Below are positions 6,793 to 60,152 of a stretch of DNA of 64,000 bases, piece after piece. Source of the stretch: Candidatus Paracaedibacteraceae bacterium (GTDB lineage: Bacteria > Pseudomonadota > Alphaproteobacteria > Paracaedibacterales > CAIOTO01); assembly GCA_030694965.1 (NCBI GenBank), contig JAUYTZ010000009.1:66427-130426 (forward strand), given 5' to 3'. Position 1 is the stretch's first letter. Every line of letters begins with the position of its first letter. The translations under genes were made by a program, and so were the position numbers. The notes below the pieces were generated by a model. That model saw only the letters and a program-made list of their open reading frames with translations. It was not told the origin of the DNA and ran no database searches.

Positions 6793-8187
6793 TTAATAGT
6801 GGATTACACGACCAAGTGAATCGAGTGTTGATTCATGCATCATTTCCGACAGTGTTGGGTGTGGGAAAATAGTGTGAATTAATTCTTCTTCTGTTGCTTC
6901 CAATGTTTTTGCAATAGCAAAGCCTTGAATCATTTCTGTAACTTCCGCACCAATCATATGCGCGCCTATAAGTTCACCCGTTTTTGCATCAAAAATTGTT
7001 TTAACGAGACCATCAGGTTCACCAAGAGCAATTGCTTTACCATTGCCACGGAAAGGGAATCGACCCACTTTTATGTCACGTTTTGCTTCAATTGCTTTTG
7101 CTTCAGTTAATCCAATGCTGGCAATTTGAGGCATGCTATAAGTGCAACCCGGGATGCAATCACGTGCCATTGGGTGTGTTTTTAAGTTGGCAATCTTTTC
7201 AACGCATAAAATCCCTTCGTGTGAAGCTTTATGCGCAAGCCATGGTGCGCCTGCAACGTCACCGATGGCATAGACACCTGGTTCAGCTGTTTGGCAATAT
7301 GCATCGACAATAATTTGTCCTTTTTCAACTTTAACTTTTGTTTTTTCAAGGCCAAGATTTTCTGTATTACCAACAATGCCGATTGCCACGACAACGGCGT
7401 CATATGTTTTTGTTTCTACCTTGCCGTCTTTTGTTTTAATTGTAGCTGTTACATTTGTGTCTGTTGCTTTTAGATCAGTAACAGATGCTGCTAACATAAA
7501 GTTCATGCCTTGCTTTTCAAATGCTTTTTGGGCAAGTGTAGATATTTCTTTGTCTTCTTGTGGAAGGATTTGTTCAAGTAATTCAACAACAGTTACATTT
7601 GCACCAAGTGTTTTGTAGAAACTTGCAAATTCAATACCGATGGCGCCTGACCCAACAATAAGTAGATCTTTTGGCATAAAGGTAGGTGTCATGGCTTCTT
7701 TTGCAAGCCATACACGCGGGTGGTTTTGTGAGATAAATGGAAGCGTGCGTGCACGAGCGCCCGTTGCTAGAATAATGTGGTTAGCAGATACATTTTCAGA
7801 TTTACCATCTTTTAATGTGATCGTTACTTTTTTATTACCTTCAATTTTTGCGGCACCTTCAAATAACGTCACTTTATTTTTTTTCAAAAGCCCACGAATG
7901 CCTGTTGCAAGTTGCCCTGATATAGTTCGTGATCGTTTGACCATCGCGTCTAAGTCAATCTCACTTTTGCTTACTTTGATGCCAAATTCACTTGCATGGT
8001 CAATTAGATGTTTAACTTCAGCGCTGCGAAGAAGTGCTTTCGTTGGGATACATCCCCAATTTAAGCAGATGCCACCAACGTGCTCGCGCTCAATGATTGC
8101 TACCTTCATGCCAAGTTGTGCTGCACGTATAGCGGCAACGTATCCGCCAGGTCCAGCGCCTATAATGACTATATCAAAGTTTTGCAT
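6793..8187 (-). CDS. lpdA: dihydrolipoyl dehydrogenase (E3)
   Basis: FAD fold GAGPGGYVAAIRAAQLG, redox disulfide GGICLNWGCIPTK, C-terminal HPTLSE. Confidence 0.93.
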   Translation of the reverse strand: MQNFDIVIIGAGPGGYVAAIRAAQLGMKVAIIEREHVGGICLNWGCIPTKALLRSAEVKHLIDHASEFGIKVSKSEIDLDAMVKRSRTISGQLATGIRGLLKKNKVTLFEGAAKIEGNKKVTITLKDGKSENVSANHIILATGARARTLPFISQNHPRVWLAKEAMTPTFMPKDLLIVGSGAIGIEFASFYKTLGANVTVVELLEQILPQEDKEISTLAQKAFEKQGMNFMLAASVTDLKATDTNVTATIKTKDGKVETKTYDAVVVAIGIVGNTENLGLEKTKVKVEKGQIIVDAYCQTAEPGVYAIGDVAGAPWLAHKASHEGILCVEKIANLKTHPMARDCIPGCTYSMPQIASIGLTEAKAIEAKRDIKVGRFPFRGNGKAIALGEPDGLVKTIFDAKTGELIGAHMIGAEVTEMIQGFAIAKTLEATEEELIHTIFPHPTLSEMMHESTLDSLGRVIHY

Positions 8188-8262
8188 GGTAGTGATTATC
8201 CTAATATTAATTTTTTATGGGTTAAGAATAAACGAAAAAGGCTTCAAAGAGCAAATAATCCT

Positions 8263-9087
8263 TTAGATTTCATCGTTCTTTTTCAAATTAAGTGCGCGTT
8301 TATAGACTTCTTTCTTTTGAAGTTTATAGGCTTCTGCCACCATGTGTGCCGCATCTTTAATAGAAAGTGTTTGCAATGCCTGGGTGAGGGCATCATCTAT
8401 TGTTTGATCTGATATAACGTCATCTGCATGTGTGCAACTTAATACAATCACGATTTCACCCTTTGGTGGATGCTGTTCGTAGTATTCAATGACTGTTGCA
8501 AAATCACCTGTTTGTACTTCTTCAAACATTTTGCTTATTTCACGGACGACCGCAACCGTTCTATTGTGAAAGGAATCTTTCATAAGTTCGAGAGTTTCGA
8601 CAACTCTTCGAGGTGACTCAAAAAAAACAAGAGTCCCATTAAATGATGCCCATTGTTGCATGTTTTTAGCATTAAAAAAACCAACAAATGCAAATGCATG
8701 ACTCATTAATCCTGATAAAACAAGTGCCGATGGCACTGCTGATGCCCCTGGAAGGGTTGTTACATATTGGCCAGCTTCATGGCATGCGCGAACGAGTTTT
8801 GTTCCTGGATCTGAGATAAGAGGTGTTCCTGCATCACTAATTAAAGCAACGGATTGTCCGTTGCTTATCGCTTTTAAAATTTGGGGGCGTATGTGCTCAG
8901 CATTATGATCATGATACGACCAAAGCTTTGTTGAGATGCCATAATGGGTAAGTAAATTCATGGATACGCGCGTATCTTCACAGGCAATAATATCGCATGC
9001 TTGTAAGATTTCAAGGGCACGCAACGTAATGTCTTTTATGTTTCCAATAGGCGTTGCAACGCAATAGAGACCAGGCTTTAATGTCAT
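8263..9087 (-). CDS. rsmI: 16S rRNA (cytidine1402-2'-O)-methyltransferase
   Basis: LYCVATPIGNIKDITLRALEIL ... ACEDTR N-terminus typical of the tetrapyrrole-methylase-fold RsmI. Confidence 0.85.
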   Translation of the reverse strand: MTLKPGLYCVATPIGNIKDITLRALEILQACDIIACEDTRVSMNLLTHYGISTKLWSYHDHNAEHIRPQILKAISNGQSVALISDAGTPLISDPGTKLVRACHEAGQYVTTLPGASAVPSALVLSGLMSHAFAFVGFFNAKNMQQWASFNGTLVFFESPRRVVETLELMKDSFHNRTVAVVREISKMFEEVQTGDFATVIEYYEQHPPKGEIVIVLSCTHADDVISDQTIDDALTQALQTLSIKDAAHMVAEAYKLQKKEVYKRALNLKKNDEI

Positions 9088-9162
9088 ATTTTTAAATACT
9101 TATTAGTTTTATAAAACATTGGCACAAAAATTGCAGGATAGAAAGCGGAAAAGTAAATTTGA

Positions 9163-9960
9163 TTGACTCGTAATAAAATAATGATTATTCGATACGTATT
9201 ATTTTTTTTGTATATGTTTTTGTTTAAAGCGATTGCACAAAATAGTTTTTCATCCTGTGAAGTTTTTGTTCGTCAGCAGGAGAAATTTTATCACATTCCT
9301 ATGCATTTGCTAAAAGCTATATCTTTGATTGAGTCAGGCAGGATAATTAAATCAGGCCAACGAGTAGCTTGGCCTTGGACAATTAATGTGGGTGGTAAGG
9401 GGTATGCTTTCGAAAGTAAAGATGCCGCTATTAAAGCAGTTCGAAAGTTTCAAAGACACGGTGAAACAAATATTGATGTTGGGTGTATGCAGATTAATTT
9501 AAGGTACCATCCAATAGCTTTTCGTGACTTAGAGTCTGCTTTTGATCCCCAATTGAATATTGCTTACGCAGCTCAATTTTTGAATAGCTTAAAGCGACAA
9601 CTTGGGAATTGGCGAGCAGCCGTTGCTCATTATCATTCAGCTAGTCCTAAGTTTCACCAACCTTATTGTGAAAAAATTCATAAACAATGGGAAATATTGC
9701 GTAATTTTTCAGGAAATATAACGCCTGTTGTGCATGATGTTGGTTACGTAACTAACTCAGTTGCCTTTAGATTATTACAACCAACGGCCTTAGCACATAT
9801 TGTACAAAGAATGGCGCCTCAGCTAAATGTAAATCAGCAAGGTTTAGCCCCTGTGCCAATTCTACTACCTGGTAAAATTCTACCTATTAATGGACACATC
9901 GCAAAGCCAGAGCCATATGCGCGTCTAAAATATCGTAAATTTTATCATGCATTACCGTAG
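9163..9960 (+). CDS. secreted lytic transglycosylase (SLT domain) protein
   Basis: Signal peptide; LIESGR catalytic-Glu region, AWPWTINV and GCMQINLRYH motifs. The track start is TTG at 9163; the ATG at 9181 is an equally plausible start. Confidence 0.6.
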   Translation: MTRNKIMIIRYVLFFLYMFLFKAIAQNSFSSCEVFVRQQEKFYHIPMHLLKAISLIESGRIIKSGQRVAWPWTINVGGKGYAFESKDAAIKAVRKFQRHGETNIDVGCMQINLRYHPIAFRDLESAFDPQLNIAYAAQFLNSLKRQLGNWRAAVAHYHSASPKFHQPYCEKIHKQWEILRNFSGNITPVVHDVGYVTNSVAFRLLQPTALAHIVQRMAPQLNVNQQGLAPVPILLPGKILPINGHIAKPEPYARLKYRKFYHALP

Positions 9961-49813: not shown

Positions 49814-52012
49814 ATGTTTCTTAAAAAATGCACCATTTCAGTCGTTGTTTTTGAATTTGTATTTGTGATAAATGCAACTGCAACTGTATCTACTCCTTCA
49901 GTGGTGCCAGCAACAACTGTTCCTGTTGTTCCTATTGTTGTAACTAGTCCTTCTTACACAACACCGGTAATTTCACCTTATACAGCACCGCCGTCTCCTC
50001 CTATAAATTATTTAGCTCCACTTTCAACAAATTTGCCTGCAACGAACTATATTTCACCTGCTCAATCAATTGCGTTTAAATCTCAATCAATAGTTTCTCA
50101 GCCTAGCAATGCGTATGTAGCAAGTGCCTCGCAGTCACAAAATGAAAACTTTTCCTCAAATGTCGTAAATACTAATCCTGTAGTAGTAGCGAGTAGTATT
50201 CAAAGTGATGTAGCACAGAGGAGAAAAGCGCAACTTAAAGAGCTAATGATTGAATCTGTAGAGCTTGCTAAAGAAAAAGAGTGCATTGAAATTGAGCTTC
50301 AAAAGCAACTTAGAAATCAGCTAGAAGCACAAAAAAAGGTTTCTGTGTTACGAGAAAAAACAATCTCAGAAATGCAAAATCAACTTTTTATGGAAGCCAT
50401 TCGCGAAAAAACAGAAGAAGAAGAATTAAAATCTAAAATAAATTCCTATATGAATTTGCTAAATGCAAATAAAACAGCACAACAGCAGAGCCCAGTGAAT
50501 AGCATATTAGGGGCGTCTGGTTTTGAAAATAGTCAAAATACCTCACAACAGGTAAGTGGATCGCACCTGCAAAATAATACGTATCCACAAAATACAGCGT
50601 CAAAAGTAGCAATAAAATCAGTTGAGACAACAAACTCAGTGAATGTTCAGAGTAGTTCATTTTCGAAAATTAAGCCAGTTGGAATAGCTCAGCAATCACA
50701 AAATAGTATGTACTTGCAAAGCAATGGCATATATTCACAAAATGGTGTAGCTCAACCAAATAATAGTGTGTATCAGCAAAATAGCATGGCTCAACCAAAT
50801 AATAATGTGTACCTGCAAAATGGTGGGGCTCATTCAAGCAGCAATACGTATTCGCAAAACAGCATTATTCAACCAAGAAACACTATGTATTCACCAAATA
50901 ATGTTACTCAACAAAACAATGGTGCATATCCACAAAATAGCCTGGTGCAACAAAACAATGGCGCGTATCCACAAAATAGCATGGCTCAATCAAATAATAA
51001 TGTGTATCCGAAAAATGGTATGACTCAACAAAACAATGGTGCATATCCACAAAATAGCATGGCTCAACCAAATAATAATGTGTACCCGCAAAATGGTGTA
51101 GCTCATTCAAGCAGCAATACGTATTCGCAAAACAGCATGATTCAACCAAGAAACACTATGTATTCACCAAATAGTGCTACTCAACAAAACAATGGTGCAT
51201 ATCCACAAAATAGCCTGGTGCAACAAAACAATGGCGCGTATCCACAAAATAGCATGGCTCAACCAAATAATAATGTGTACCCGCAAAATGGTGTAGCTCA
51301 TTCAAGCAGCAATACGTATTCGCAAAACAGTATGATTCAACCAAGCAACCCTATGTATTCGCCAAATAGTGCGGCTCAGCAAGATAATAGCATGTACTCG
51401 CAAAATAGTGTGGTTTTACAAAGCAATATAATTCCGCAAAACAATCTGAACAATATGATGGGAATGTCTGGTGCATCGTTGAATCAGAGTGCCATGTTAC
51501 AGCCAGCTAACGATCAGTTTAACAATAGTATGAGTGGTGCGCAACATCCATTCCAAAATACTCTGTATCTACAGCAATCAGCAATGGCATACCCTGCCGG
51601 GGCGCAACAAAATGGCATATATCCACAGCCACAGTATGCAGGGATGTATCTGCCACAACCTAATAATATCATGTACCCGCAGCAACAAACTAATGTAAAT
51701 GGAATGTACCCACCACAGTCACAAATGGGTGGAATGATAGGAATGTTAGCGGGGCAAAAACCAATGGCGCCTCAACCAGGGATGGTTGGATCTTATTATG
51801 GGCAACAACCAGGGATTTACCCACCACAATCACAAATGGGTGGAATGATAGGAATGTTAGCGGGGCAAAAACCAATGGTGCCTCAACCAGGGATGGTTGG
51901 ATCTTATTATGGGCAACAACCAGGAATGTATTCACAACCAAATGCTATGGGGATGATGCCTGCTGTAAATTCAATTAAGGGTCTTATGAGCATGTTTGGC
52001 AAAAAGCGTTAA
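49814..52012 (+). CDS. large secreted Q/N-rich tandem-repeat protein
   Basis: Hydrophobic N-terminus, Pro/Thr/Val-rich spacer, coiled coil (residues about 135-215), then a nested QQNNGAYPQNS-type repeat array and a Met/Gly/Pro/Gln-rich C-terminus. Confidence 0.7.
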   Translation: MFLKKCTISVVVFEFVFVINATATVSTPSVVPATTVPVVPIVVTSPSYTTPVISPYTAPPSPPINYLAPLSTNLPATNYISPAQSIAFKSQSIVSQPSNAYVASASQSQNENFSSNVVNTNPVVVASSIQSDVAQRRKAQLKELMIESVELAKEKECIEIELQKQLRNQLEAQKKVSVLREKTISEMQNQLFMEAIREKTEEEELKSKINSYMNLLNANKTAQQQSPVNSILGASGFENSQNTSQQVSGSHLQNNTYPQNTASKVAIKSVETTNSVNVQSSSFSKIKPVGIAQQSQNSMYLQSNGIYSQNGVAQPNNSVYQQNSMAQPNNNVYLQNGGAHSSSNTYSQNSIIQPRNTMYSPNNVTQQNNGAYPQNSLVQQNNGAYPQNSMAQSNNNVYPKNGMTQQNNGAYPQNSMAQPNNNVYPQNGVAHSSSNTYSQNSMIQPRNTMYSPNSATQQNNGAYPQNSLVQQNNGAYPQNSMAQPNNNVYPQNGVAHSSSNTYSQNSMIQPSNPMYSPNSAAQQDNSMYSQNSVVLQSNIIPQNNLNNMMGMSGASLNQSAMLQPANDQFNNSMSGAQHPFQNTLYLQQSAMAYPAGAQQNGIYPQPQYAGMYLPQPNNIMYPQQQTNVNGMYPPQSQMGGMIGMLAGQKPMAPQPGMVGSYYGQQPGIYPPQSQMGGMIGMLAGQKPMVPQPGMVGSYYGQQPGMYSQPNAMGMMPAVNSIKGLMSMFGKKR
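50737..51420 (+). repeat. in-frame nested tandem repeats (273-nt then 195-nt units built from roughly 39-nt subrepeats)
   Basis: CACTATGTATTCACCAAATA recurs at 50881 and 51154, with a diverged copy at about 51350. Confidence 0.85.
51707..51928 (+). repeat. 2 x 111-nt in-frame tandem repeat
   Basis: TACCCACCACA recurs at 51707 and 51818. It encodes YPPQSQMGGMIGMLAGQKPM(A/V)PQPGMVGSYYGQQPG twice. Confidence 0.9.
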
Positions 52013-52136: not shown

Positions 52137-52212
52137 GGGCCCTTAGCTCAGTTGGTAGAGCATCTGACTTTTAATCAGGTGGTCGAAGGTTCGAATCCTT
52201 CAGGGCCCACCA
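52137..52212 (+). tRNA. tRNA-Lys (anticodon UUU), CCA encoded
   Basis: Manual cloverleaf: acceptor GGGCCCT/AGGGCCC, D arm GCTC-AGTTGGTA-GAGC, anticodon loop CTTTTAA (TTT at 52170-52172), T arm GAAGG-TTCGAAT-CCTTC, discriminator A, CCA. Confidence 0.95.
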
Positions 52213-52784
52213 ATTATTCTGTGTTTAAGGCAGATTTTCCATAAATAAAAATTTTAAAATAAGCTAAAACCCAGCACTTTCTAGATGTCAAATTTTATTG
52301 TACTTTTTAGAAAAAATAACAATAAAATTTTAAATGTGACTTGTGTATACCGTTGTAGCCTGTATGTGACTTACTAAATAAAAAAATCACATGCGCTAAT
52401 ATTGAAACATGCGTTAGATTCAGCCAAATTAAGCTATATGAAATAGTCATATAAATGCAATTAATAAGCTATAGATTAGTTTGAAGTGGCTATAAATGCT
52501 ATATTAGCATGGCAGCGGCTCTTTCATAAAGGCCCAAGACGCCTAGCGTCATTAGGTTATTTATGGTTTTTTTCTAATAGAGTCTTAGCAAAAAAACTTT
52601 TTTGTATGATGGGCTTAATGTATGGAAAGCAAGAAGATCTTTATAAAAAACTTTCTTTACTATTTTAGCGTATACATTATTGCTTGGAAATAAGAAAGTA
52701 GAATGTTTAGTATGATTTTAACTTTTTGTTAGAATGCAATTGATTTATAAGTAAAATATATAAATTTATAAGAAATAAAACATA

Positions 52785-53105
52785 ATGGGTTATTTTAGTA
52801 TTTTCAAGAACAAAAATAAATTAGATCGTCAAAATCAAATTCTTCTCCTTGAAAATATTAAAGGAGAATACGATAAACTATTTTTAATTAATCAAAAATT
52901 ACACTTGTTACATAGCAATGAAAAAATAGATACTGGTGTTTGTGAATTTTCTATTGAAAGCATTTTAAAGCAAATTACTATCTATATTGATAAATATAAT
53001 CTTGATGAAGATGTTATTGATTCACTTCTTGAAATTGGAGATATTACTACTTATTACATACATGGTTCATTTGAAAGTTTTAAGTCTCTTAAGTTTAAAT
53101 TTTAA
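52785..53105 (+). CDS. hypothetical protein
   Basis: 106-aa ORF in a very AT-rich region; no motif recognised. Confidence 0.3.
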   Translation: MGYFSIFKNKNKLDRQNQILLLENIKGEYDKLFLINQKLHLLHSNEKIDTGVCEFSIESILKQITIYIDKYNLDEDVIDSLLEIGDITTYYIHGSFESFKSLKFKF

Positions 53106-54078
53106 CTTTGCTTGGTTTTGTCGTTTCAACTAAGAGTTAAAAATAGATTTTTTTGCCTTGTAAAATGTTTAACCCACAATTAGGTGCCGTGATGCTGCAT
53201 TTAAATTTGTTTTTAGAACAGTGGTTTTAACGGAATCAATTTTTCATTGCTAATTATAAGATGTGCTAGAAAATTGCTTTTGAAAAATAATTATTTAAGA
53301 GTAAAAATTACATCCGCACAAATGAGAGAGATAACCTGAATACATGTGTCACTTTATATTTTATAGCCTCCCTACCATCGCTTGGTGCAAGTAAATTAGA
53401 ATTAATTCTTTAAATAACAAGCTTAATGATTTTAATGAATAGTTGTATATTCACTGAACAACAAAAAATATTTACTAGTATAAAATTTCTCAACCTCACT
53501 TTTCTCGCTACAATTATTAGTGTTTTCCTCATTAAGAAGAGACTTAGCCATTCTATCTTGTGATTGGAGAATAATACGTTCTTTTTCTAAAAAATTATCG
53601 TCAAATTTCATTTTTTTCCTTATACATAATAAGTTACAAAATTATTTTTTATACGAAAACATTTTATACAGTATTAAATTTTTGAAATCAACGTAATTTT
53701 TATTTTTTATATAGAAAATTTTATTTTCTAATGGTTTTTTATTTGTTTAAGCGTTAGATTATTGTCTGTGAACGTTGCTGCTAATGTGGCAATTATGTAG
53801 TAATCGAGTTGCTTTGAAAAAAGTTTTAGAGGTAAGAATTGTTACTTATGAAAAAATATTATTTTAAAAATATGAAGAATTATTACTTATATTAAGTTTT
53901 TAGTTTATTAGCTTTTTTACTGCTTAATGCATAATAAACAACACTTGTTACTAACTAGTATCATCACTAATCACCCAAAGTGTTGTTCTACAGTTTATAA
54001 TATAACGGATAAAATTATAATTTTATTATATGGTATGCAAAAAGTTTGTGTAGAAGGTGTTTTTAATTAGTGTGCGTA

Positions 54079-54813
54079 TTAATCAGCCAACCCATGAGAT
54101 CTATTGGGCAAAACAACTGATTTTGCCCAATAGTTTGCTAGTGTGTTGAGCAAATTTAGAAAAACATCGTAATCATAAGGCTTACAAATATACCCTGATG
54201 CATAAGCTTTATAGCAAGAAACCATATCTTGAAAATTAATTTTATTTGTCATGATAATTACAGGAATATCACTAAGAGTTTTATCTCTCTTGATTTCTCG
54301 AAGGACATTTTCTCCATCACGTTTTGGAATACTGAGATCCAGTAAAATAATATCTGGTCGCGGAAAATTAGTCGATACAAGCCTATTTCTCAGAAAATCA
54401 ATAACAGCTTCTCCATCATGTAGTACAAATAAGTTAACATTAACTGAACATTCGGATAAAGCACGTCTTGTTAAAAATTCATCTGCAACATCATTTTCAA
54501 CAAGAAGCACATTAAGAACGCTTTCATAATCTGGAATAACTGTATCTGATGTTGTAAAGTTTAGCTTTTTTTTAAAAGTTAGAAACCCTTGAAAAAAAAA
54601 CTTTGATTCAACACCCATTATTTCTCCTAATTGATGAAGAGTAGTAGCTGATATACGAGATTGCGCTTGCTCGTATTTTTGGACTTGTTGCAGTGAAATG
54701 CCAAGTTTTTTAGCAACTTCTAATAAAGTTAATCCTAACTTTTGACGTATAAATCGTAGGCGCTTACCAATGTATATATCAAGTTCTTTTTGTTCGTCAC
54801 AGTGCTTATTCAT
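54079..54813 (-). CDS. response regulator with N-terminal XRE-type HTH and C-terminal receiver domain
   Basis: HTH_3 region IGKRLRFIRQKLGLTLLEVAKKLGISLQQVQKYEQ. Receiver features: VLLVEND, phospho-acceptor context PDIILLDLSIPKRDG, IIMTN, YICKP. Confidence 0.8.
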   Translation of the reverse strand: MNKHCDEQKELDIYIGKRLRFIRQKLGLTLLEVAKKLGISLQQVQKYEQAQSRISATTLHQLGEIMGVESKFFFQGFLTFKKKLNFTTSDTVIPDYESVLNVLLVENDVADEFLTRRALSECSVNVNLFVLHDGEAVIDFLRNRLVSTNFPRPDIILLDLSIPKRDGENVLREIKRDKTLSDIPVIIMTNKINFQDMVSCYKAYASGYICKPYDYDVFLNLLNTLANYWAKSVVLPNRSHGLAD

Positions 54814-54829
54814 TGTAGTTTCTCCTTAT

Positions 54830-55378
54830 TTAGAATTGTGTTTTGGGTAACCAAATAGTAAATTCACATCCATTCACAGGATTGGATTGAATCGTTATTG
54901 TTCCTCCATGGGCCTCTAAAATTTTTCGACAAATCAAAAGTCCTATTTCAGCTCTTTTGCAATGCACGTTTCTTTTCAAGTAATTGGCTTCTTCAAAAAT
55001 GCTTTTGTGGTATATATCTTCAACGGCAATTGCATTATCTTTAATTTTTATTTCCCACATCGTCTCTTGGTCTTCTGCTGAGATAATGATGTTTAGAGGT
55101 TCTTCTCCCTTAAACTTAAGTGCATTTCCGATAATAGTTTTAAAAAGATGATGTATTTGTTTTTGCTTAGCCATTATGATTGGCAATCGATTAATTTGCA
55201 TGAAGTCTTCAGAAATTCCTAATAAGCAAACAAACTCATCTTTGATAGATTTTAAAACTACATTTAAATTAATTTGGCTATAATCTTTTTTTATCAATAA
55301 ATATTTTGAATAATTTAAATTAAAATTAGCTGCAGTACTTTGATTCTTACATAAGAATTTTGATTCATTTTTCATCAT
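54830..55378 (-). CDS. histidine-kinase remnant: HATPase_c domain only, with no H-box/DHp or sensor domain
   Basis: N box HHLFKTIIGNALKF, degenerate G1 (KDNAIAV), G2 GLLICRKILEAHGG. The ORF begins where helix 2 of a DHp domain would end. Confidence 0.65.
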   Translation of the reverse strand: MMKNESKFLCKNQSTAANFNLNYSKYLLIKKDYSQINLNVVLKSIKDEFVCLLGISEDFMQINRLPIIMAKQKQIHHLFKTIIGNALKFKGEEPLNIIISAEDQETMWEIKIKDNAIAVEDIYHKSIFEEANYLKRNVHCKRAEIGLLICRKILEAHGGTITIQSNPVNGCEFTIWLPKTQF

Positions 55379-55396: not shown

Positions 55397-56278
55397 TTAT
55401 ATTTTTTTAAAATGATTGATGACACTGTCGCTGATTTCTTTTTCAAAAAATGATGTTAATAAATGTCCCATTTTTGAAATAATTTTAAGGGTTGAATTTG
55501 GAATAATCTTTGCTGTTGTATGCGCATGTTGAATGGAAATAATTGGGTCATCACTGCCATGAATAACAAGCGTGTTATGAGTTATAAAATTGCTTTTAAA
55601 AAAAAGATTACTTTGATTTTTTGCTAAAAGGTGGTTATGTATGAAAGAAGGCGCATTATTTTCATTTATTCTTTTCTTAAGAAGGTAGGCAAACGCTTCT
55701 GCTTCTTTTTCGTTAAATGGCGCATAAGGACCGTTCAGCAGCTTTAAATGGGAGATTGCTTTTGAAAGCCACTTTGGGTCATCTACTAACATTCTGCTGA
55801 CACGTTCTAATTTTACAAAAATACCAGGTGATGATTTATGAAAAGTTTCATACTCATTTATTCTGATTTCTTCAATATCCATTGCATTATAAGTTGTCAT
55901 AAGAAGAGCAAGAGAGGATACTTTTTCAGGATTGTTAATAGCGATCATTTGAGCAAGGTATCCGCCCATTCCGCTACCAATCAGGTGAGCCTTTTCTTTT
56001 TTATAAAATTTAATAATGCATAGGACATCATTAGCCATGTCATGCAAATAATATGGAGAATGATTAAAGTTAATATGCTGTGAAAGACCTGTGTCTCTGT
56101 TATCAAAACGTACAACAAGGTAGCCTGAATTTGCTAATGTATTGCACCATGAATCACTCCAATAAATTCCCTGTTTTTCAGCACCTGAAATTAAAATAAT
56201 TAGAGGGTCAGATAAATTGCCAAAAGACTCTGTCCATAAATTTGCGCTTAAAGATTTTACGTAACAGATATTCGACAT
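55397..56278 (-). CDS. alpha/beta-hydrolase fold protein with Gly at the nucleophile position
   Basis: HLIGSGMGGYLAQ aligns to the canonical (V/I)GHSMGG elbow, so the Ser becomes Gly. The Asp (HGSDDP) and His (KMGHLL) positions are retained, but the HG oxyanion motif reads SG. Confidence 0.7.
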   Translation of the reverse strand: MSNICYVKSLSANLWTESFGNLSDPLIILISGAEKQGIYWSDSWCNTLANSGYLVVRFDNRDTGLSQHINFNHSPYYLHDMANDVLCIIKFYKKEKAHLIGSGMGGYLAQMIAINNPEKVSSLALLMTTYNAMDIEEIRINEYETFHKSSPGIFVKLERVSRMLVDDPKWLSKAISHLKLLNGPYAPFNEKEAEAFAYLLKKRINENNAPSFIHNHLLAKNQSNLFFKSNFITHNTLVIHGSDDPIISIQHAHTTAKIIPNSTLKIISKMGHLLTSFFEKEISDSVINHFKKI

Positions 56279-56926
56279 GTCTAGCCTTGAAATTTCAACT
56301 GTTTAATATATGAAACTTTTAGGTCTTTTCATAAGATGCAGCAAGCTACTAAATTTGATAGATTTCAACAGAGAATTTAAGTTAGTTAGAAATGTTACTT
56401 TTAGTCGAATTTATGTTAATAAATTATTTAATATTAATAAAGACATTTAAAAATATATTAATACATAACATATAAGAATTTTTATTTTTATTAAAAGTTA
56501 TCATATTACGTGATATCCTTTTTAAAATCTATTAGATTTGATATAGAAACGGTATGCGCAATTTCTCACTTTTTCAACTTGCGTTAAAAATATATAACTT
56601 TATCTTTCACATATTGTATGATTTTTATTCATTACATGTTTTATTCATCGAACTACGCGTTCAAAATTGCGCACAAAGAACTGGTGATGGACTATTTCCG
56701 CATGATGCGCGGGGCGTTTGGTAACTTGCTAAGGCGTCATTAGGAGCTTCAAATCTTATGTTAAATAATGTTTGGGAAAAAAAATGAATCAGCTAAATAT
56801 CCACTTTTTAGAAGATAAAGAATGTATGAGTGAGAAAATTAATAAATTTATTACAATATTATTTTTATTTACAAAAAAATTACGTTCCTTTATAAGATAT
56901 ACAATGACGCAATGTAGAGGAAAAAT

Positions 56927-57464
56927 ATGAGAAATATAGATAAAATTTGCCATAAGATCTACACTGAGTCTTTTGGTAATGAACAAACAATAGATGGCGT
57001 AAACAAATGCTTTCAAAATATATGTTTGCTTCATCAAATTAAGCGTTTTTCTATTGTACAGATTATCAATGATGAAAAGAATAAAAAGAACAAATCAAAC
57101 TTTTTTAGTTACCACACTAGTTATCCAAGCGCCTGGGTGAAAATATTTAGACGCTAAATACTATGAATACGACCCTGTTTTAAAAAATATAATAAGCATG
57201 CCTTTTCCATTTTATTGGGAAAAAGATACATTTAAAAATATGTCAGAAAAAGAAAATAATTTCTTTAACGAAGCCAAAAATTTTAATATCACAACAGGAA
57301 CAACTATTCCACTTACACCGAATAATAATAAAACTTCTTATTTAACCATACTTGATCTTGATTTAACAAATAATTTTAACCTTCTTTTTTGGCTGCGGGC
57401 TTCAGCAAATGCCTACTTTAAAAAAAAAGATGAAATAACTAATTTAAAAAATAAAGATTCTTGA
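56927..57464 (+). pseudogene. LuxR-family autoinducer-binding domain, frameshifted and lacking the HTH domain
   Basis: ORFs 56927-57157 and 57198-57464 are two frames of one paralogue of the adjacent luxR. YPSAWVK (frame 1) continues as YLDAKYYEYDPVL (frame 2) across the AAAA run at 57140-57143. The reading frame ends 13 nt before the next gene. Confidence 0.7.
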
Positions 57465-57477
57465 ACTGAGGGCTGTT

Positions 57478-58194
57478 ATGAACATTTGTGAAATAGAAAA
57501 AGATCCTATAAATTTTATTTTTGAATCTGTTTCCTTAGGAGAGCTTCAAGGAAGGTTTAAGGATATTTGCGAATATTATAATATTGAAAAATATGCTTTG
57601 GTAAAAATACTAAAAGAAGATAAAAAATCTTTAGATAATAAAAATGAATTTACATGTTACGATAATTATCCAGAAGAATGGATTAAAATGTATAATAGTA
57701 ACAAATATTACTTAAAAGACCCAGTTTTGATTGATATTAAAAATATGAGTCAAGCAACTTATTGGCACATTGAAAACTTCAAAGATGCTACTATTGAACA
57801 AAAAAGAATTTTAGACGAGTGCGCTGACTTTAATATAAAAAGGGGAACTACAATCCCCTTGCTGCCGAATAATAAATATAATAGGTTTTTAACCCTAATT
57901 GGCACTGATATTCATGATCCAAAAGTTATTTATAATTTAGCTAACGCAGCCGTTATTTATTTTGAACGTAATGAATATTTTGTGAATAAAAATAAAAGAG
58001 GTATACTTACAACAAAAGAACAAGAAATTATGGAATTAAAAGCGCTTGGATATCACAATAAACAAATTTCTGAAATCTTATCACGTAACTATGAAACAAT
58101 TGCGTTGCATTTAAAGAACATCCGCAAAAAATTTGGTGTATTCACAACAGAGCAAGCCATTGCAAAATACTACCAAGATTTTTTTAATAGTTAA
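57478..58194 (+). CDS. luxR: LuxR-family AHL-responsive transcriptional regulator
   Basis: The autoinducer-binding residues are all present (W..Y in EEWIKMY, DP in KDPVL, W in TYWHI, G in RGTTIPL). C-terminal GerE-type HTH is LTTKEQEIMELKALGYHNKQISEIL. Confidence 0.85.
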   Translation: MNICEIEKDPINFIFESVSLGELQGRFKDICEYYNIEKYALVKILKEDKKSLDNKNEFTCYDNYPEEWIKMYNSNKYYLKDPVLIDIKNMSQATYWHIENFKDATIEQKRILDECADFNIKRGTTIPLLPNNKYNRFLTLIGTDIHDPKVIYNLANAAVIYFERNEYFVNKNKRGILTTKEQEIMELKALGYHNKQISEILSRNYETIALHLKNIRKKFGVFTTEQAIAKYYQDFFNS

Positions 58195-58849
58195 GAATGT
58201 TAGTTCTAGATTTTTTTTCATTCAAATTACCTAAATTTAATCTAGATTCATACTTTAAAGATTCATTTACTCCAACCATTAGTTTATCTGATGAATAAGT
58301 CATTGGTGGGAACGCAAAGATAGATATTTTTTCTCCATGAAATAACGTTTCATTAATATCATACATGTATAAACCACTTCTTTTTGTTAATCTTTTAACT
58401 GCCGGATAAGCTAGCGTTAAATATGTTTCAACTTTTTTTGATTCAAGCCCAAATTTCATTAAACCATATAATAATAGCTTTGATATAGCTCCTTGCATTT
58501 CCGACTGATAATCCTCATCTAATGCTGTGTCCACTGCAAATCGGCTTGTTTCCCAGTAACCGGGCCTTTTAAATTCATGTATATCAGGCAGGGTATCTGC
58601 AAAATAAGTATCGAACATACACGGATGTATCATTTCAATAAAACGAATACATCCACGAACGATTCCTTTTGCATCTTTATATATTAAATAATAGGTACTA
58701 TTTTCATCGTACTCATCTTTTTCGATTTGGTTTTCATGATTAACCTTCCATTTCTTTTTTTCAAAAAAAACTTTATATCGCAGTCGATACATACTTTCAA
58801 GGTCATCACGAAATACGTCATAATTAGTCGGCTCTATTAAATGTAGCAT
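58184..58849 (-). CDS. luxI: LuxI-family acyl-homoserine-lactone synthase, copy 2
   Basis: MYRLRYKVFFEKKKWKV, EKDEYDE, GCIRFIEM and WETSRFAVD match the Autoind_synth hallmarks. The ATG at 58849 with GGGGAG 9 nt upstream is preferred over the TTG at 58855. Confidence 0.85.
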   Translation of the reverse strand: MLHLIEPTNYDVFRDDLESMYRLRYKVFFEKKKWKVNHENQIEKDEYDENSTYYLIYKDAKGIVRGCIRFIEMIHPCMFDTYFADTLPDIHEFKRPGYWETSRFAVDTALDEDYQSEMQGAISKLLLYGLMKFGLESKKVETYLTLAYPAVKRLTKRSGLYMYDINETLFHGEKISIFAFPPMTYSSDKLMVGVNESLKYESRLNLGNLNEKKSRTNILNY

Positions 58850-59543
58850 TCCCAAACTCCCCTAATTTTTGTTTCATATGCAAAAAATATTCAGTATCAT
58901 CCTTGTACATTGGAACAAAACTCCACAAAACAGGCTTTTTTTGGTTTATATTTATTTTTTTGGTCATTTTGGTGTAGCAATAGTTAAGCGAGGGGAACGA
59001 CGAAACAACAATTTCTTCTTTTGTTTCTTCATTAATCATAATCCTGTTGATTTCTGAAATAAGTAAGCCATTCATTTTGAATAGTTCAAGTGTTTTGGGA
59101 TAAGCAATTGATAAGGTACATTGAATTTCTTCAATTTCAATAGCAAAGTAAAGATAGCCAGTTGCAAGGTTCAAAGAGATGTTTTTAGCCATTTCAGGTG
59201 TATATGTTTCATTGAAAATAGGGTCAACAGCTAAGCGGCTTATTTCCCAATGTCCTGGTCTTTTAAATTCAGTTAAATTGGGCAAAGCAAATTTAAAAGG
59301 TCCATCAAACATGCAATCATTTGTCATTTCGACAAAACGCACACATCCTCTAATTGTTCCACATGCGTCTTTATAGACAAGATAGTACATATTCTTTTCA
59401 TCATATATGTCCCTTTCCATTCCATCATCACTGTCTACGTTCCACTTCATATTTTCAAAAAATACTTTGTGACGTAAACGATACATTTCATCAAGATCAT
59501 TTCTATGTAAATGATAATTCTTTGGGTCTATTAAAATTAACAT
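58824..59543 (-). CDS. luxI: LuxI-family acyl-homoserine-lactone synthase, copy 1
   Basis: MYRLRHKVFFENMKWNV, ERDIYDE, GCVRFVEM, WEISRLAVD. GAGGAA RBS lies 8 nt upstream. The 3' end overlaps copy 2 by 26 nt in a different frame. Confidence 0.85.
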   Translation of the reverse strand: MLILIDPKNYHLHRNDLDEMYRLRHKVFFENMKWNVDSDDGMERDIYDEKNMYYLVYKDACGTIRGCVRFVEMTNDCMFDGPFKFALPNLTEFKRPGHWEISRLAVDPIFNETYTPEMAKNISLNLATGYLYFAIEIEEIQCTLSIAYPKTLELFKMNGLLISEINRIMINEETKEEIVVSSFPSLNYCYTKMTKKININQKKPVLWSFVPMYKDDTEYFLHMKQKLGEFGNATFNRAD

Positions 59544-60152
59544 AATTTAATTCCTCGTAATTAACTTATACTGTATATGTTAATTAATTTCACATTTTCA
59601 ATATATGTAATGACTAAATCGTAAATAAATGTTGAAAAAAATAATAGATATCAAATTTAATAGTATTGCTTTAACTGTTTTTTAATTATATGTTTACGTA
59701 TTTTTATTTTTTAACATATTAAGTTAATTAAATTTATTTTTTTAAAATTATATTATTTTTTAAAATTTTTACTATTAAATAAAATAGTTATGATAATTTG
59801 CAATCGTGCTAACTTTAAAGGAATTTTCTATATGTAGGCCACGAAATGAATTTATTTTTCCACCATTAATTTATTTTCATTTTAAATTTATTATTTTTAT
59901 AAGTAAATGTGTGTATTGAGAGAAAAATTTAGTTTTTTTCAACTAATGTAATAATGATTGTAATGATTGTTTTTCAATGGTTTATCTTGAAAGAATATTG
60001 ACTGTAGTGCGCTTTCAATAAAATTATTTCCTTTTTTCGGGTAAGACGTTGCTTAAAATAAAATTCATTTTAAACAAGAATATCTAGACATATTTCAACT
60101 TGAATGTATTTTTTTTTATTCATACAGTTCGAATAGTTATGCTTTTTAGCAG

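Follow-up and report, generated by a model that had tools for sequence, protein, structure and literature searches.

Two tandem, anciently diverged LuxI-type synthases beside a single full-length LuxR receptor

In the convergent arrangement of a LuxI-type synthase and its LuxR-type receptor (R2 or type B topology), the 3' ends of the two genes overlap, and passages of a survey of such circuits report overlaps of 2-79 bp (Gelencser et al. 2012, PMC3386692). Genomes with more than one LuxI protein and different products are likewise known, as in the las/rhl systems of Pseudomonas aeruginosa, the cin/rai/rhi/tra systems of Rhizobium leguminosarum and ssaI/ssbI/sscI of Ruegeria sp. KLH11, where sscI is regarded as a duplicate of ssbI (PMC3824088). 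The synthases of these multi-synthase systems lie at separate loci, each usually paired with a LuxR of its own, unless they are unlinked orphans. Finally, in the CerN/CerM pair of Cereibacter sphaeroides and the TrlR/TraR pair of Agrobacterium tumefaciens, a LuxR homologue lacking the HTH domain adjoins a full-length LuxR. CerN is 31% identical to CerM, the AHL-bound forms of CerN and TrlR block DNA binding by their partners, and the inactive complexes of CerN were studied by pull-down and EMSA (PMC11655674).

Here we analyse a quorum-sensing locus within a 64-kb stretch of chromosomal DNA from an uncultured alphaproteobacterium, referred to as the window (Table 1). It shares with canonical convergent circuits the protein families, the catalytic and ligand-binding residues and the overlapping 3' ends (11 nt between luxR and luxI-B), and, as in those circuits, a dyad-symmetric candidate operator lies upstream of the synthase. 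It departs from them in carrying two tandem synthases in one apparent operon with one full-length receptor. The best explanation for the locus as a whole, to which we assign a probability of about 60%, is a two-signal, one-receptor circuit in which LuxR would act on the dyad and from which a putative brake has been lost.

Organization of the locus and identity of the synthases

The first-pass annotation of this DNA had recognised a quorum-sensing locus of the AHL type, in which two luxI reading frames lie in tandem on the minus strand and the one full-length luxR is convergent with them, and this core reading holds. Both luxI frames are in place, and the profile search proposed for them yielded matches to Pfam Autoind_synth (PF00765; curated cut-off 24 bits) of 80.6 bits for luxI-A (E=1.4e-22) and 103 bits for luxI-B (E=1.8e-29), while luxR carries both Autoind_bind (PF03472, 6.3e-15) and GerE (PF00196, 4.8e-10). 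NCBIfam TraI-type models match the two synthases only below their equivalog cut-offs, so that neither copy qualifies as orthologous to a named synthase. Alignments of 33-34 homologues including both copies show no variation at R24, W34, E43, D45, D48, R69, E100, S102 and R103 and almost none at F28; the catalytic and SAM-binding reference residues are the equivalents of LuxI R25, F29, W35, E44, D46, D49, R70, E101, S103 and R104. AF2 models (pLDDT 93 for luxI-A, 89 for luxI-B) have every solved AHL synthase among their top Foldseek matches, and the top 12 PDB matches are all AHL synthases (E down to 2e-13, target-normalised TM 0.68-0.83), the best being MesI, BjaI, RpaI, TofI and LasI for luxI-A (TM 0.79-0.83) and TofI, LasI and BjaI for luxI-B (TM 0.77-0.81). 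Judged by profiles and predicted models, luxI-A and luxI-B are confirmed as members of the LuxI family of AHL synthases, with a GNAT-like α/β fold.

Table 1. Features of the quorum-sensing locus and its surroundings, in window positions
Feature	Position	Strand	Description
tRNA-Lys(UUU)	52137..52212	+	ARAGORN and Rfam; left edge of AT-rich block
HTH_3-receiver regulator	54079..54813	-	244 aa; N-terminal HTH_3 (XRE-type, 8.4e-11), C-terminal receiver (Response_reg, 3.7e-15)
HATPase_c-only protein	54830..55378	-	182 aa; HATPase_c 8.6e-17
α/β-hydrolase-fold protein	55397..56278	-	293 aa; Abhydrolase_1 2.8e-21; first gene of neighbouring operon, preceded by box
Box CTATCAAATTTAGTAG	56346..56361	-	68-83 nt 5' of α/β-hydrolase-like gene; 13 nt 5' of -35-like ATGAAA
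Box-like site CTATTAGATTTGATAT	56529..56544	+	1 mismatch; intergenic, 5' of luxR'-luxR
luxR'	56927..57464	+	pseudogene of HTH-less LuxR paralogue; ancestral length ~180 aa
luxR	57478..58194	+	full-length AHL receptor/transcription factor, 238 aa
luxI-B	58184..58849	-	downstream AHL-synthase paralogue, 221 aa from ATG
GGGGAG	58857..58862	-	Shine-Dalgarno-like, read from sequence; 7 nt 5' of luxI-B ATG, within luxI-A CDS
luxI-A	58824..59543	-	upstream AHL-synthase paralogue, 239 aa
Box 1 CTATTAAATTTGATAT	59648..59663	-	candidate LuxR operator, about 105-120 nt 5' of luxI-A ATG
Second box CTATTTTATTTAATAG	59772..59787	-	1 mismatch; ~230 nt from luxI-A ATG

As noted earlier, the stop of luxI-A (58824-58826) lies inside luxI-B, 23-26 nt from the luxI-B ATG (58847-58849), which gives an overlap of 26 nt; with the in-frame TTG that lies two codons 5' of the ATG as start, luxI-B would measure 223 aa. 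The corresponding starts overlap by 26, 17 and 17 nt in the window and its relatives, each with Shine-Dalgarno-like sites, and purine-rich equivalents of GGGGAG precede the luxI-B start in the related loci L001 and L003. These overlaps of 17-26 nt and the Shine-Dalgarno sites strongly suggest a single operon with translational coupling, in which luxI-A and then luxI-B would be transcribed as one unit and the ribosome-binding site for luxI-B would lie within the terminal part of luxI-A. Wastewater RNA-seq contigs are identical to luxR, luxI-B, luxI-A and the hydrolase-like gene; 52.3-55.6 kb, by contrast, has essentially no cover. The contigs of these libraries are assemblies lacking strand information, in which DNA may be included, and none of them spans the junction between the two synthases.

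The same gene order, with luxI-A upstream, luxI-B downstream, luxR convergent and luxR' beyond luxR, recurs in three other contigs (L001, L003 and a JGI contig), and two adjacent luxI genes occur in 13 of the roughly 28 loci retrieved for this LuxI subfamily. The combination of two synthases with one receptor, which had been regarded as unusual, is so against the literature searched but not within the subfamily: the pair exists in relatives, and our literature search found no published description of a tandem luxI pair or two-synthase layout.

Divergence of the two synthases

luxI-A and luxI-B share 45% identity over 198 aa (BLASTP, E=4e-64), unevenly distributed between residues 1-107 (58.9%) and residues 108-200 (30.1%), in agreement with the by-eye estimate of copies about half identical N-terminally and further diverged C-terminally. 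Orthologues keep 72-73% identity in the second half; they are 77% identical as compared to 43% for paralogues within one genome. In neighbour-joining (NJ) trees, the A copies cluster together, as do the B copies, with bootstrap values of 100% for the orthologue pairs of window and L001, 76% for the extended A clade, 60% for the B clade together with L004, and only 21% for a sister relationship of A and B. This grouping indicates that the pair is old, as had been proposed, rather than the product of a recent duplication. Given the 21% support for A and B as sisters, an origin of the two by tandem duplication is no more than possible. Relative to the L001 orthologues, dN/dS is 0.12 for luxI-A, 0.11 for luxI-B and 0.09 for luxR, a measure by which both synthase copies are under purifying selection and which, averaging across the whole divergence, would mask a very recent relaxation.

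Ten differences are fixed between the clades, eight of them at or past residue 104. The helix formed by residues 146-162 has a net charge of +3 to +4 in all B-clade members, with the basic motif VKRLTKR (net +4) in luxI-B being specific to this clade. In the A clade, 15 of the 16 members have a net charge of -1 to +1 there, the exception being P0033 (+3). In addition, luxI-A has a C-terminal motif, KKPVLWSFVPMYKD, that is common to the A clade and some outgroups and absent from the B clade. In LasI and EsaI, a basic surface helix is reportedly involved in docking of the acyl-carrier protein (ACP), which is the basis of our reading of the helix as a putative docking element.

It is conceivable that the two synthases are redundant and that the tandem pair merely increases, by gene dosage, the amount made of a single AHL or of closely similar ones, as the catalytic residues are identical in both copies, one apparent operon and one receptor serve both, and many LuxI enzymes give overlapping product mixtures. 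Dosage duplicates, however, are normally young and similar, whereas these copies are 43-45% identical, and 30% in the acyl-binding half; each is conserved among its orthologues (72-77%) at a dN/dS of about 0.11-0.12, and the clade-fixed differences, including the helix charge switch, are kept across many genomes. We consider redundancy quite improbable. Since the half responsible for SAM binding and lactonisation is shared, and the acyl-binding half and the putative ACP-docking surface helix differ strongly, luxI-A and luxI-B would instead make different acyl-HSLs, and a working two-signal circuit is the most likely reading.

A special case of this two-signal model is that one copy, most likely luxI-A, uses acyl-CoA in the manner of BjaI, RpaI and MesI to make a non-fatty-acyl or branched HSL, with luxI-B remaining a classical acyl-ACP enzyme. 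The best Foldseek matches of the luxI-A model are MesI, BjaI and RpaI (TM 0.80-0.83), slightly above TofI and LasI, and the ranking is reversed for luxI-B; moreover, the basic helix kept in the B clade is missing from the A clade, which has a conserved extra C-terminal tail. Yet the Foldseek gaps, less than tenfold in E-value and about 0.03 in TM, do not discriminate, phmmer places TofI and LasI above BjaI for both copies, and several outgroup LuxI proteins lack the basic helix too, so that a switch to acyl-CoA seems to us rather unlikely.

The HTH-less receptor paralogue, the candidate operator and the neighbouring operon

luxR retains all six ligand-pocket residues in the alignment, as YPEEW..MY..KDPVL..YWH..RGTTIPL; the six correspond to TraR W57, Y61, D70, P71, W85 and G113 (PMC11655674). 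Upstream of it, luxR' is split between two frames, as the ORFs 56927..57157 and 57198..57464; the latter matches Autoind_bind (3.9e-5), and in a Pfam profile search GerE matched neither. The frame is broken at an A4 run (57140-57143), which is 2 nt shorter than the poly-A of L001; otherwise luxR' is colinear with the intact 180-aa protein of L001. Contigs from two other samples show zero differences in this stretch, and all contigs sampled from the window species carry the luxR' frameshift. Intact orthologues are found in L001 (180 aa), L004 (183 aa; both with PF03472 only) and the JGI contig (183 aa); they keep the ligand-pocket residues and share 31-35% identity with the LuxR encoded beside them. 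A 13-nt gap precedes the luxR ATG in the window, as opposed to a 4-nt overlap of the two genes in L001.

The gene had been annotated as a luxR remnant, and it is indeed a pseudogene, disabled by a single 2-nt poly-A deletion. Its derivation from a normal, full-length luxR by decay must be rejected, as the intact orthologues in relatives measure 180-183 aa and contain the autoinducer-binding domain only, which points to a dedicated HTH-less paralogue of the CerN/TrlR type as the ancestor. By analogy with CerN and TrlR, this ancestral protein may have bound AHL and antagonised full-length LuxR, and the lineage of the window, having inactivated it, would run the circuit without this brake.

A 16-bp dyad with the ideal sequence CTATCAAATTTGATAG lies upstream of both luxI-A and the neighbouring operon, at positions conserved in relatives. 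The pattern search returned 5 distinct sites in the 64-kb window, all within 3.5 kb (56.3-59.8 kb), as compared to 0.53 expected and 0.15 when sequence of matched AT content was simulated. Both the dyad and its surroundings are AT-rich, and the pattern was partly derived from the sites scored, with the boxes of the hydrolase gene (window and L001) left out of the derivation. The position of box 1 is also occupied in L001, L003, L004 and L008, and L001 (5667), L003 (2886) and L004 (7726) likewise have a second upstream site. The L001 site at 8779-8794 has the same distance from the orthologous hydrolase-like gene as the window box and lies inside a conserved footprint, and the 56529..56544 site is part of a block conserved with L001; RNA contigs covering 56535/56551-56886 begin just after it. 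A promoter scan did not rise above chance (41 found, 37.8 expected). Relative to plausible promoters, the dyad centre falls at about -57 for the hydrolase operon and about -90 for luxI-A, or downstream of an alternative promoter. The classic lux box is centred at -42.5, a spacing unlike that seen here. We regard the dyad as a candidate LuxR operator; LuxR binding to it, upstream of the synthase operon, would amount to autoregulation, be it by activation or repression.

The neighbouring operon starts with a hydrolase-like protein that is related to lactone and ester hydrolases (E 1e-29 to 1e-34 against EstT, EstX and RdmC) and lacks the nucleophile serine: its elbow reads GSGMGG, and Ser occupies the nucleophile position in 142 of the 151 sequences aligned, which comprise the window protein and the 150 best family representatives. 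The gene is kept beside the quorum-sensing genes in L001 and the JGI contig. The following protein has no HisKA or sensor domain beside its HATPase_c domain; synteny with L001 extends to its gene, and in L003 and L004 kinase-like genes adjoin the quorum-sensing genes. The HTH_3-receiver regulator is syntenic in L001, where it is present in two copies, and adjoins luxR in L010. Acting through the dyad, LuxR may also control this operon and with it the serine-less α/β-hydrolase-fold protein, the ATPase fragment of a kinase and the regulator with HTH and receiver domains.

The locus sits in an AT-rich accessory block, as had been stated: GC per 500 bp is 17-35% (~0.28) over about 52.0-60.0 kb and 35-45% on both sides, dropping from 0.45 to 0.30 at tRNA-Lys. 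The flanks of the quorum-sensing cassette differ in L001. Deviant composition beside a tRNA gene is a trait of tRNA-associated genomic islands; of their other traits, an integrase-like ORF is absent from 52.2-60.1 kb, and no direct repeat derived from the tRNA 3' end was found. By PriA, the best named relative is an amoeba symbiont of the Holosporales, with no more than 43% identity.

The block also includes about 1.9 kb without convincing ORF. One might view the locus as an eroding, disused accessory island in a host-restricted genome, with the recurrent luxR' frameshift as the first visible decay, considering that the block is AT-rich and borders a tRNA and that its kinase-like gene encodes an ATPase fragment only. 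Against this, luxI-A, luxI-B and luxR are each of full length and retain every key residue, at a dN/dS of 0.09-0.12 relative to L001, the candidate operator sites are conserved, and sequences identical to all three genes occur in RNA libraries, making erosion very unlikely in our judgement. The preferred reading remains the two-signal, one-receptor circuit.

A broader proposal would be that an uncultured, possibly protist-associated and Holosporales-related alphaproteobacterial clade possesses a conserved dual-signal AHL module, with translationally coupled synthases differing in acyl donor or chain, one receptor and an HTH-less antagonist, and that its output includes a catalytically disabled, lactone-binding α/β-hydrolase-fold signalling component, next to the fragmentary kinase and the HTH-receiver regulator. 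We hold this tentative proposal to be unlikely in its entirety; if true, it would bring AHL quorum sensing or confinement sensing to a lineage without prior reports, and with it a new kind of downstream sensor.

Comparison with known systems

The LuxI and LuxR families are known; for the conserved tandem two-synthase layout, our search of the literature yielded no published study, and the passages of the topology survey that match a term search contain no I-I topology (PMC3386692). Compared to the Pseudomonas, Rhizobium and Ruegeria systems, luxI-A and luxI-B are adjacent, overlap, and share a receptor and an upstream region. The acyl-CoA-dependent synthases BjaI, RpaI and MesI have the same fold (TM 0.80-0.83 for the luxI-A model), but sequence similarity of either copy to them is no higher than to the ACP-type enzymes LasI and TofI. 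The candidate operator CTATCAAATTTGATAG is AT-rich, unlike operators of the CTG-N10-CAG type, and its centre does not fall at -42.5.

For luxR', the likeness to CerN and TrlR is one of architecture. TrlR is a recent truncation with 88% identity, whereas the luxR' paralogue is old and conserved; unlike both CerN and TrlR, the copy in the window has been inactivated by a 2-nt deletion.

Two synthase genes and their single receptor

The first-pass annotation had read two head-to-tail LuxI-family genes on the minus strand and a single full-length, convergent LuxR receptor, all of which we recovered in the ORF list for 54-64 kb (see table). The upstream synthase gene, luxI-A, and its downstream paralogue, luxI-B, matched the Pfam Autoind_synth profile with 80.6 bits (E=1.4e-22) and 103 bits (E=1.8e-29), respectively, at a cut-off of 24 bits, bearing out the family assignment. 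NCBIfam TraI-type models matched both only under their equivalog cut-offs, indicating that neither is orthologous to a named synthase. The two proteins are 45% identical over 198 residues (BLASTP, E=4e-64); in the family alignment, they share 58.9% identity over residues 1-107 and 30.1% over residues 108-200, in agreement with the earlier impression by eye of copies half identical N-terminally and more divergent towards the C-terminus. Across the 33-34 homologues aligned, both copies included, all canonical LuxI catalytic residues are fully or almost fully conserved. AlphaFold models built on this alignment were confident (pLDDT 93 for luxI-A and 89 for luxI-B), and the top 12 PDB matches found for each with Foldseek were exclusively AHL synthases (TofI, LasI, BjaI, MesI, RpaI and EsaI), with target-normalised TM-scores of 0.68-0.83. 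Between the window and the orthologous locus L001, dN/dS is 0.12 for luxI-A, 0.11 for luxI-B and 0.09 for luxR, at a dS of ~1.2-1.3, and purifying selection thus appears to have kept both synthases to the same degree.

Features of the quorum-sensing locus and its neighbourhood (window positions)
Feature	Position	Strand	Description
tRNA-Lys	52137-52212		start of AT-rich block
regulator gene	within 54079-55378	-	3' of hydrolase-like gene; unusual order, N-terminal XRE-type HTH_3, C-terminal receiver
HATPase_c-only gene	within 54079-55378	-	3' of hydrolase-like gene; 182 aa, without HisKA or sensor domain
hydrolase-like gene	55397-56278 (L001: 8864-9766)	-	alpha/beta-hydrolase-fold protein; homology to EstT, EstX, RdmC
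dyad site	56346-56361		68-83 nt 5' of hydrolase-like gene; pattern search
dyad site	56529-56544		further into same intergenic region; pattern search
luxR', first short ORF	56927..57157	+	no HTH
luxR', second short ORF	57198..57464	+	different frame; Autoind_bind match, no HTH
luxR	57478..58194	+	238 aa; Autoind_bind and GerE domains
luxI-B	58184..58849 (from ATG)	-	221 aa; 223 aa from in-frame TTG two codons upstream; Pfam Autoind_synth
luxI-A	58824..59543	-	239 aa; ORF; Pfam Autoind_synth
dyad site	59648-59663		5' of luxI-A; pattern search
dyad site	59772-59787		5' of luxI-A; pattern search

As had been noted, the luxI-A stop codon (58824-58826) lies within luxI-B, whose ATG is at 58847-58849. 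The resulting overlap is 26 nt in the window and 17 nt in both L001 and a further relative's locus, L003; the genes are 1 nt apart in a related JGI contig and separated by 13-21 nt in more distant pairs. Since the genes leave no space between them to house a promoter or terminator, their co-transcription is very likely. Purine-rich, Shine-Dalgarno-like sequences lie 6-8 nt upstream of the luxI-B start in the window, L001 and L003 (in the window GGGGAG, 7 nt from the ATG), and translational coupling of luxI-B to luxI-A is plausible. A scan for terminators yielded a single hairpin-like candidate, inside luxR on the minus strand (57860-57840).

Four wastewater RNA-seq runs contained contigs identical to parts of luxR, luxI-B, luxI-A and the hydrolase-like gene, and had essentially no cover of 52.3-55.6 kb; none of their short, unstranded contigs spanned the luxI-A/luxI-B junction. 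RNA-library contigs also covered the intergenic stretch 56535-56886, upstream of luxR', at a depth of 10-17, like that of housekeeping genes, beginning just past the box-like site at 56529-56544. The covered stretch could be a long luxR'-luxR 5' leader, a small RNA, or the product of a small ORF (56784..56930). We did not accept the latter as a gene, its similarity to an L001 counterpart being faint and composition-prone.

Homologue searches with each copy, and the gene context of the matches, showed the identical layout: luxI-A and luxI-B overlapping or abutting, with a convergent luxR and a second, Autoind_bind-only gene, in three other contigs: L001, the JGI contig and L003. The L001 orthologues are 75% (luxI-A) and 80% (luxI-B) identical to those of the window, and a more distant MAG (L004/L007) carries a single luxI with luxR and an HTH-less gene. 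Further tandem pairs occur at L008, L010, L011, L013, L014 and L022-L025 in genome and metagenome collections, so that 13 of the ~28 loci of this LuxI subfamily have two adjacent synthase genes. In neighbour-joining trees, upstream copies of the window type fall into one clade (A) and downstream copies into another (B), with bootstrap values of 100% for the window-L001 orthologue pairs, 76% for the extended A clade, 60% for the B clade together with the single L004 gene, and only 21% for a sister relationship of A and B. Window and L001 orthologues are 77% identical, compared to 43% for the paralogues within a genome; copies thus group A with A and B with B, upholding the annotation's view of old paralogues rather than a recent duplication. 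The pair is older than the divergence of the lineages carrying it.

Some MAGs have two separate loci of this subfamily (L008 and L011 in one, L009 and L012 in another), and one holds two tandem pairs, that is, four synthase genes. Several two-locus MAGs are labelled Pelagibacter, Chlorobiaceae or Chthoniobacterales; these labels look out of line with the others and may stem from mis-binning.

The divergence of the two synthases is concentrated in the C-terminal half, where orthologues are 72-73% identical, compared to 30% for A versus B. In LuxI proteins such as EsaI and LasI, the wall of the acyl-chain pocket is formed by this half. Of ten positions at which each clade has its own fixed residue, eight lie at residue 104 or beyond. 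All B-clade members have a basic patch in helix 146-162 (VKRLxKK, net charge +3 to +4); of the 16 A-clade members, 15 have a neutral helix there (net -1 to +1), the exception being P0033 with +3. In ACP-dependent synthases, the counterpart of this helix probably serves to dock acyl-ACP. Moreover, a C-terminal tail, PVLW..GPM[FY]K, is conserved in the A clade and missing from the B clade. Together, these differences suggest different products for A and B, and possibly different acyl donors. If two enzymes making different signals were indeed expressed from one promoter, the cell would emit a fixed-ratio signal pair, which could allow ratio sensing or confer signal identity with no need for another regulatory loop.

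An assignment of the two enzymes to the ACP or CoA type was attempted and abandoned, as sequence and fold comparisons with the PDB do not discriminate: Foldseek placed CoA-dependent enzymes narrowly ahead for A and ACP-dependent enzymes ahead for B, with differences too slight to carry weight, and sequence searches placed TofI and LasI first for both. The tail motif, in the form PVLW..GPM[FY]K[DY], corresponds to luxI-A residues ~198-239 (58824-58950), is predicted, at moderate model confidence, to form a short hairpin and a helix, and is also found in some outgroups; the luxI-B start codon falls within its coding sequence.

A broken, HTH-less LuxR paralogue

Upstream of luxR lies a broken gene, luxR', which the first-pass annotation had called a luxR remnant. 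Its two short ORFs are jointly colinear with intact proteins of 180 aa in L001 and 183 aa in L004, and the JGI contig encodes a 183-aa, Autoind_bind-only equivalent at the same position. The intact orthologues consist of the autoinducer-binding domain alone, ending where the linker would start; they retain the ligand-pocket residues W, Y, D-P, W and G, and are 31-35% identical to the adjacent full-length LuxR. The ancestor of luxR' was thus a dedicated HTH-less paralogue, and the broken gene is not a decayed full-length luxR.

The lesion itself is small. A poly-A run is 2 nt shorter in the window (GTGAAAATA at 57137-57145) than in L001 (GTAAAAAAATA), which shifts the frame into a stop codon at 57155-57157; beyond the shift, the original frame is open as far as the ancestral stop. 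An assembly error could produce such a pattern, but contigs from a drinking-water and an aquaculture run match 57022-57264 with zero differences, ruling out this explanation and indicating that the frameshift is real and common to this species in independent samples. For the joined halves, dN/dS versus L001 is 0.20, a value consistent with selection over most of the history of the gene, followed by recent loss.

Related genes were observed elsewhere. L003 encodes, upstream of luxI-A (1891-2640), a 249-aa Autoind_bind protein without a GerE match, L019/L028 show two partial Autoind_bind matches ahead of a full-length luxR (~7650-9450), and L016/L017/L026 have extra LuxR-family genes too. HTH-less or multiple LuxR paralogues seem to recur in this group of loci.

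A candidate operator and the apparent operon of the hydrolase-like gene

A lux-box and palindrome scan found no classic CTG-N10-CAG-type lux box upstream of luxI-A. Comparison of the relatives' upstream regions, however, yielded a 16-bp dyad common to the luxI-A upstream regions of the window, L001, L003 and L004 (CTATYAWATWTDRTAK; ideal form CTATCAAATTTGATAG). Allowing up to one mismatch, the 64-kb window contains five distinct sites, all within 56.3-59.8 kb, compared to 0.53 expected from whole-window shuffles and 0.15 from a Markov simulation of the AT-rich block alone. One of them, inside luxR, is probably due to chance. In L001, the regions upstream of luxI-A and of the hydrolase-like gene have sites at corresponding positions, and L004 has two upstream of its single luxI. 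The sites upstream of the hydrolase-like gene played no part in deriving the pattern, and they fall in a footprint that is conserved although the rest of the intergenic region is poorly so. The dyad is thus a probable LuxR operator, which, if true, would define a regulon of two operons, that of the synthases and that of the hydrolase-like gene. The dyad lies at a distance from plausible promoters that is unusual for a lux box, and promoter-like matches in this AT-rich DNA were no more frequent than by chance (41 versus 37.8 expected), so that LuxR may act here either as an activator or as a repressor.

The hydrolase-like gene, the kinase ATPase fragment and the HTH-receiver regulator look like one operon, and kinase and regulator genes also flank the quorum-sensing genes in L001, L003, L004 and L010. 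The hydrolase-like protein aligns over its full length with three esterases (E 1e-29 to 1e-34): EstT and EstX, which act on macrolides (lactones), and RdmC, a methylesterase. Its nucleophile elbow, however, reads G-S-G-M-G-G, identical in the L001 orthologue, instead of the G-x-S-M-G-G of the wider family; solved EstT chains have G-M-A-L-G-G, presumably as Ser-to-Ala crystallisation mutants. In an alignment with the 150 best family representatives from a library of 1.84 billion proteins, 142 of the 151 sequences carry Ser at the nucleophile position, while Gly or Asp takes its place in the window protein and its four closest relatives, all of which retain the Asp and His positions of the triad. 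In all five, the preceding residue is Ser or Cys, which makes a shifted nucleophile possible; alternatively, the protein may belong to the non-catalytic, ligand-binding members of this fold or be a pseudo-enzyme. Speculatively, the arrangement of hydrolase, ATPase and regulator is reminiscent of hydrolase-fold signal receptors.

Genomic setting and relation to known circuits

The window is a housekeeping-rich stretch of chromosome, encoding UvrA, SpoT/RelA, PriA, PyrG, DnaX, GltX, CysS, RF-1, IF-3 and L9, along with a Ros/MucR regulator and the SRP RNA. The quorum-sensing block at ~52.0-60.0 kb had been described as AT-rich and accessory. Its composition (17-35% GC, with flanks of 35-45%) is evident, and the accessory status is supported only by this composition, by tRNA adjacency and by the different flanking genes of the cassette in its nearest relative, L001; a search of 52-60.3 kb revealed neither an integrase gene nor tRNA-derived direct repeats.

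Next to the tRNA, ~1.9 kb (52213-54078, up to the regulator gene) contain no ORF with a family match (longest 106 aa), have 23-30% GC and essentially no RNA-library cover, and may represent decayed sequence at the margin of the AT-rich block. Directly upstream of the tRNA, at 49814-52012 (+), a 732-aa ORF without a Pfam match encodes an N-terminal hydrophobic segment followed mostly by degenerate Q/N/P/S-rich repeats (YPQNSMAQPNNNVY..., GMIGMLAGQKPM...); its product may be secreted or surface-exposed.

The quorum-sensing proteins are singletons at 90% identity in a collection of 15 billion proteins. An identical copy is found on a contig of a groundwater metagenome run, and near-identical fragments in drinking-water, aquaculture, groundwater and wastewater runs. 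The best named PriA match is Candidatus Paracaedibacter symbiosus (Holosporales, only 43% identity), other named matches being 'MAG: Alphaproteobacteria bacterium', and the source genome is that of an alphaproteobacterium, perhaps related to Holosporales. MAGs with related luxI genes are labelled Holosporales, Ca. Paracaedibacteraceae, Alphaproteobacteria or Pseudomonadota, apart from a few labels that look like binning noise. A 2025 Holosporales review of 220,000 characters is silent on quorum sensing, LuxI, LuxR and homoserine lactone, nor did the open-access literature searched describe AHL genes in Holosporales-related lineages. Given these carriers and the silence of the review, the locus may be a sign that an obligately host-associated group senses other cells or confinement.

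AHL circuits are usually described as one synthase and one receptor. Here, two old synthases share one apparent transcription unit and one receptor, ancestrally joined by a receptor-like putative antagonist, and about a dozen uncultured genomes retain the two-synthase arrangement under purifying selection. In the open-access literature searched, we found no description of a conserved, overlapping two-synthase operon with one receptor, although absence there is no proof, nor of its combination with an ancient HTH-less paralogue. The parts all come from known families. The 3' ends of luxR and luxI-B overlap by 11 nt in the window and by 4 nt in L001 and the JGI contig, fitting the 'R2' topology which Gelencser et al. 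(PMC3386692) describe, with overlaps of 2-79 bp and a discussion of possible antisense interference. HTH-less LuxR antagonists, too, have precedent. TrlR of Agrobacterium forms inactive heterodimers with TraR, and CerN of Cereibacter sphaeroides, which is HTH-less and 31% identical to the adjacent CerM, stops CerM DNA binding as a CerN-AHL complex (PMC11655674). The luxR' orthologues likewise lack an HTH and sit beside a full-length LuxR to which they are similarly related, and the loss of luxR' in this species, with intact copies in its relatives, offers a natural comparison for the role of such proteins.
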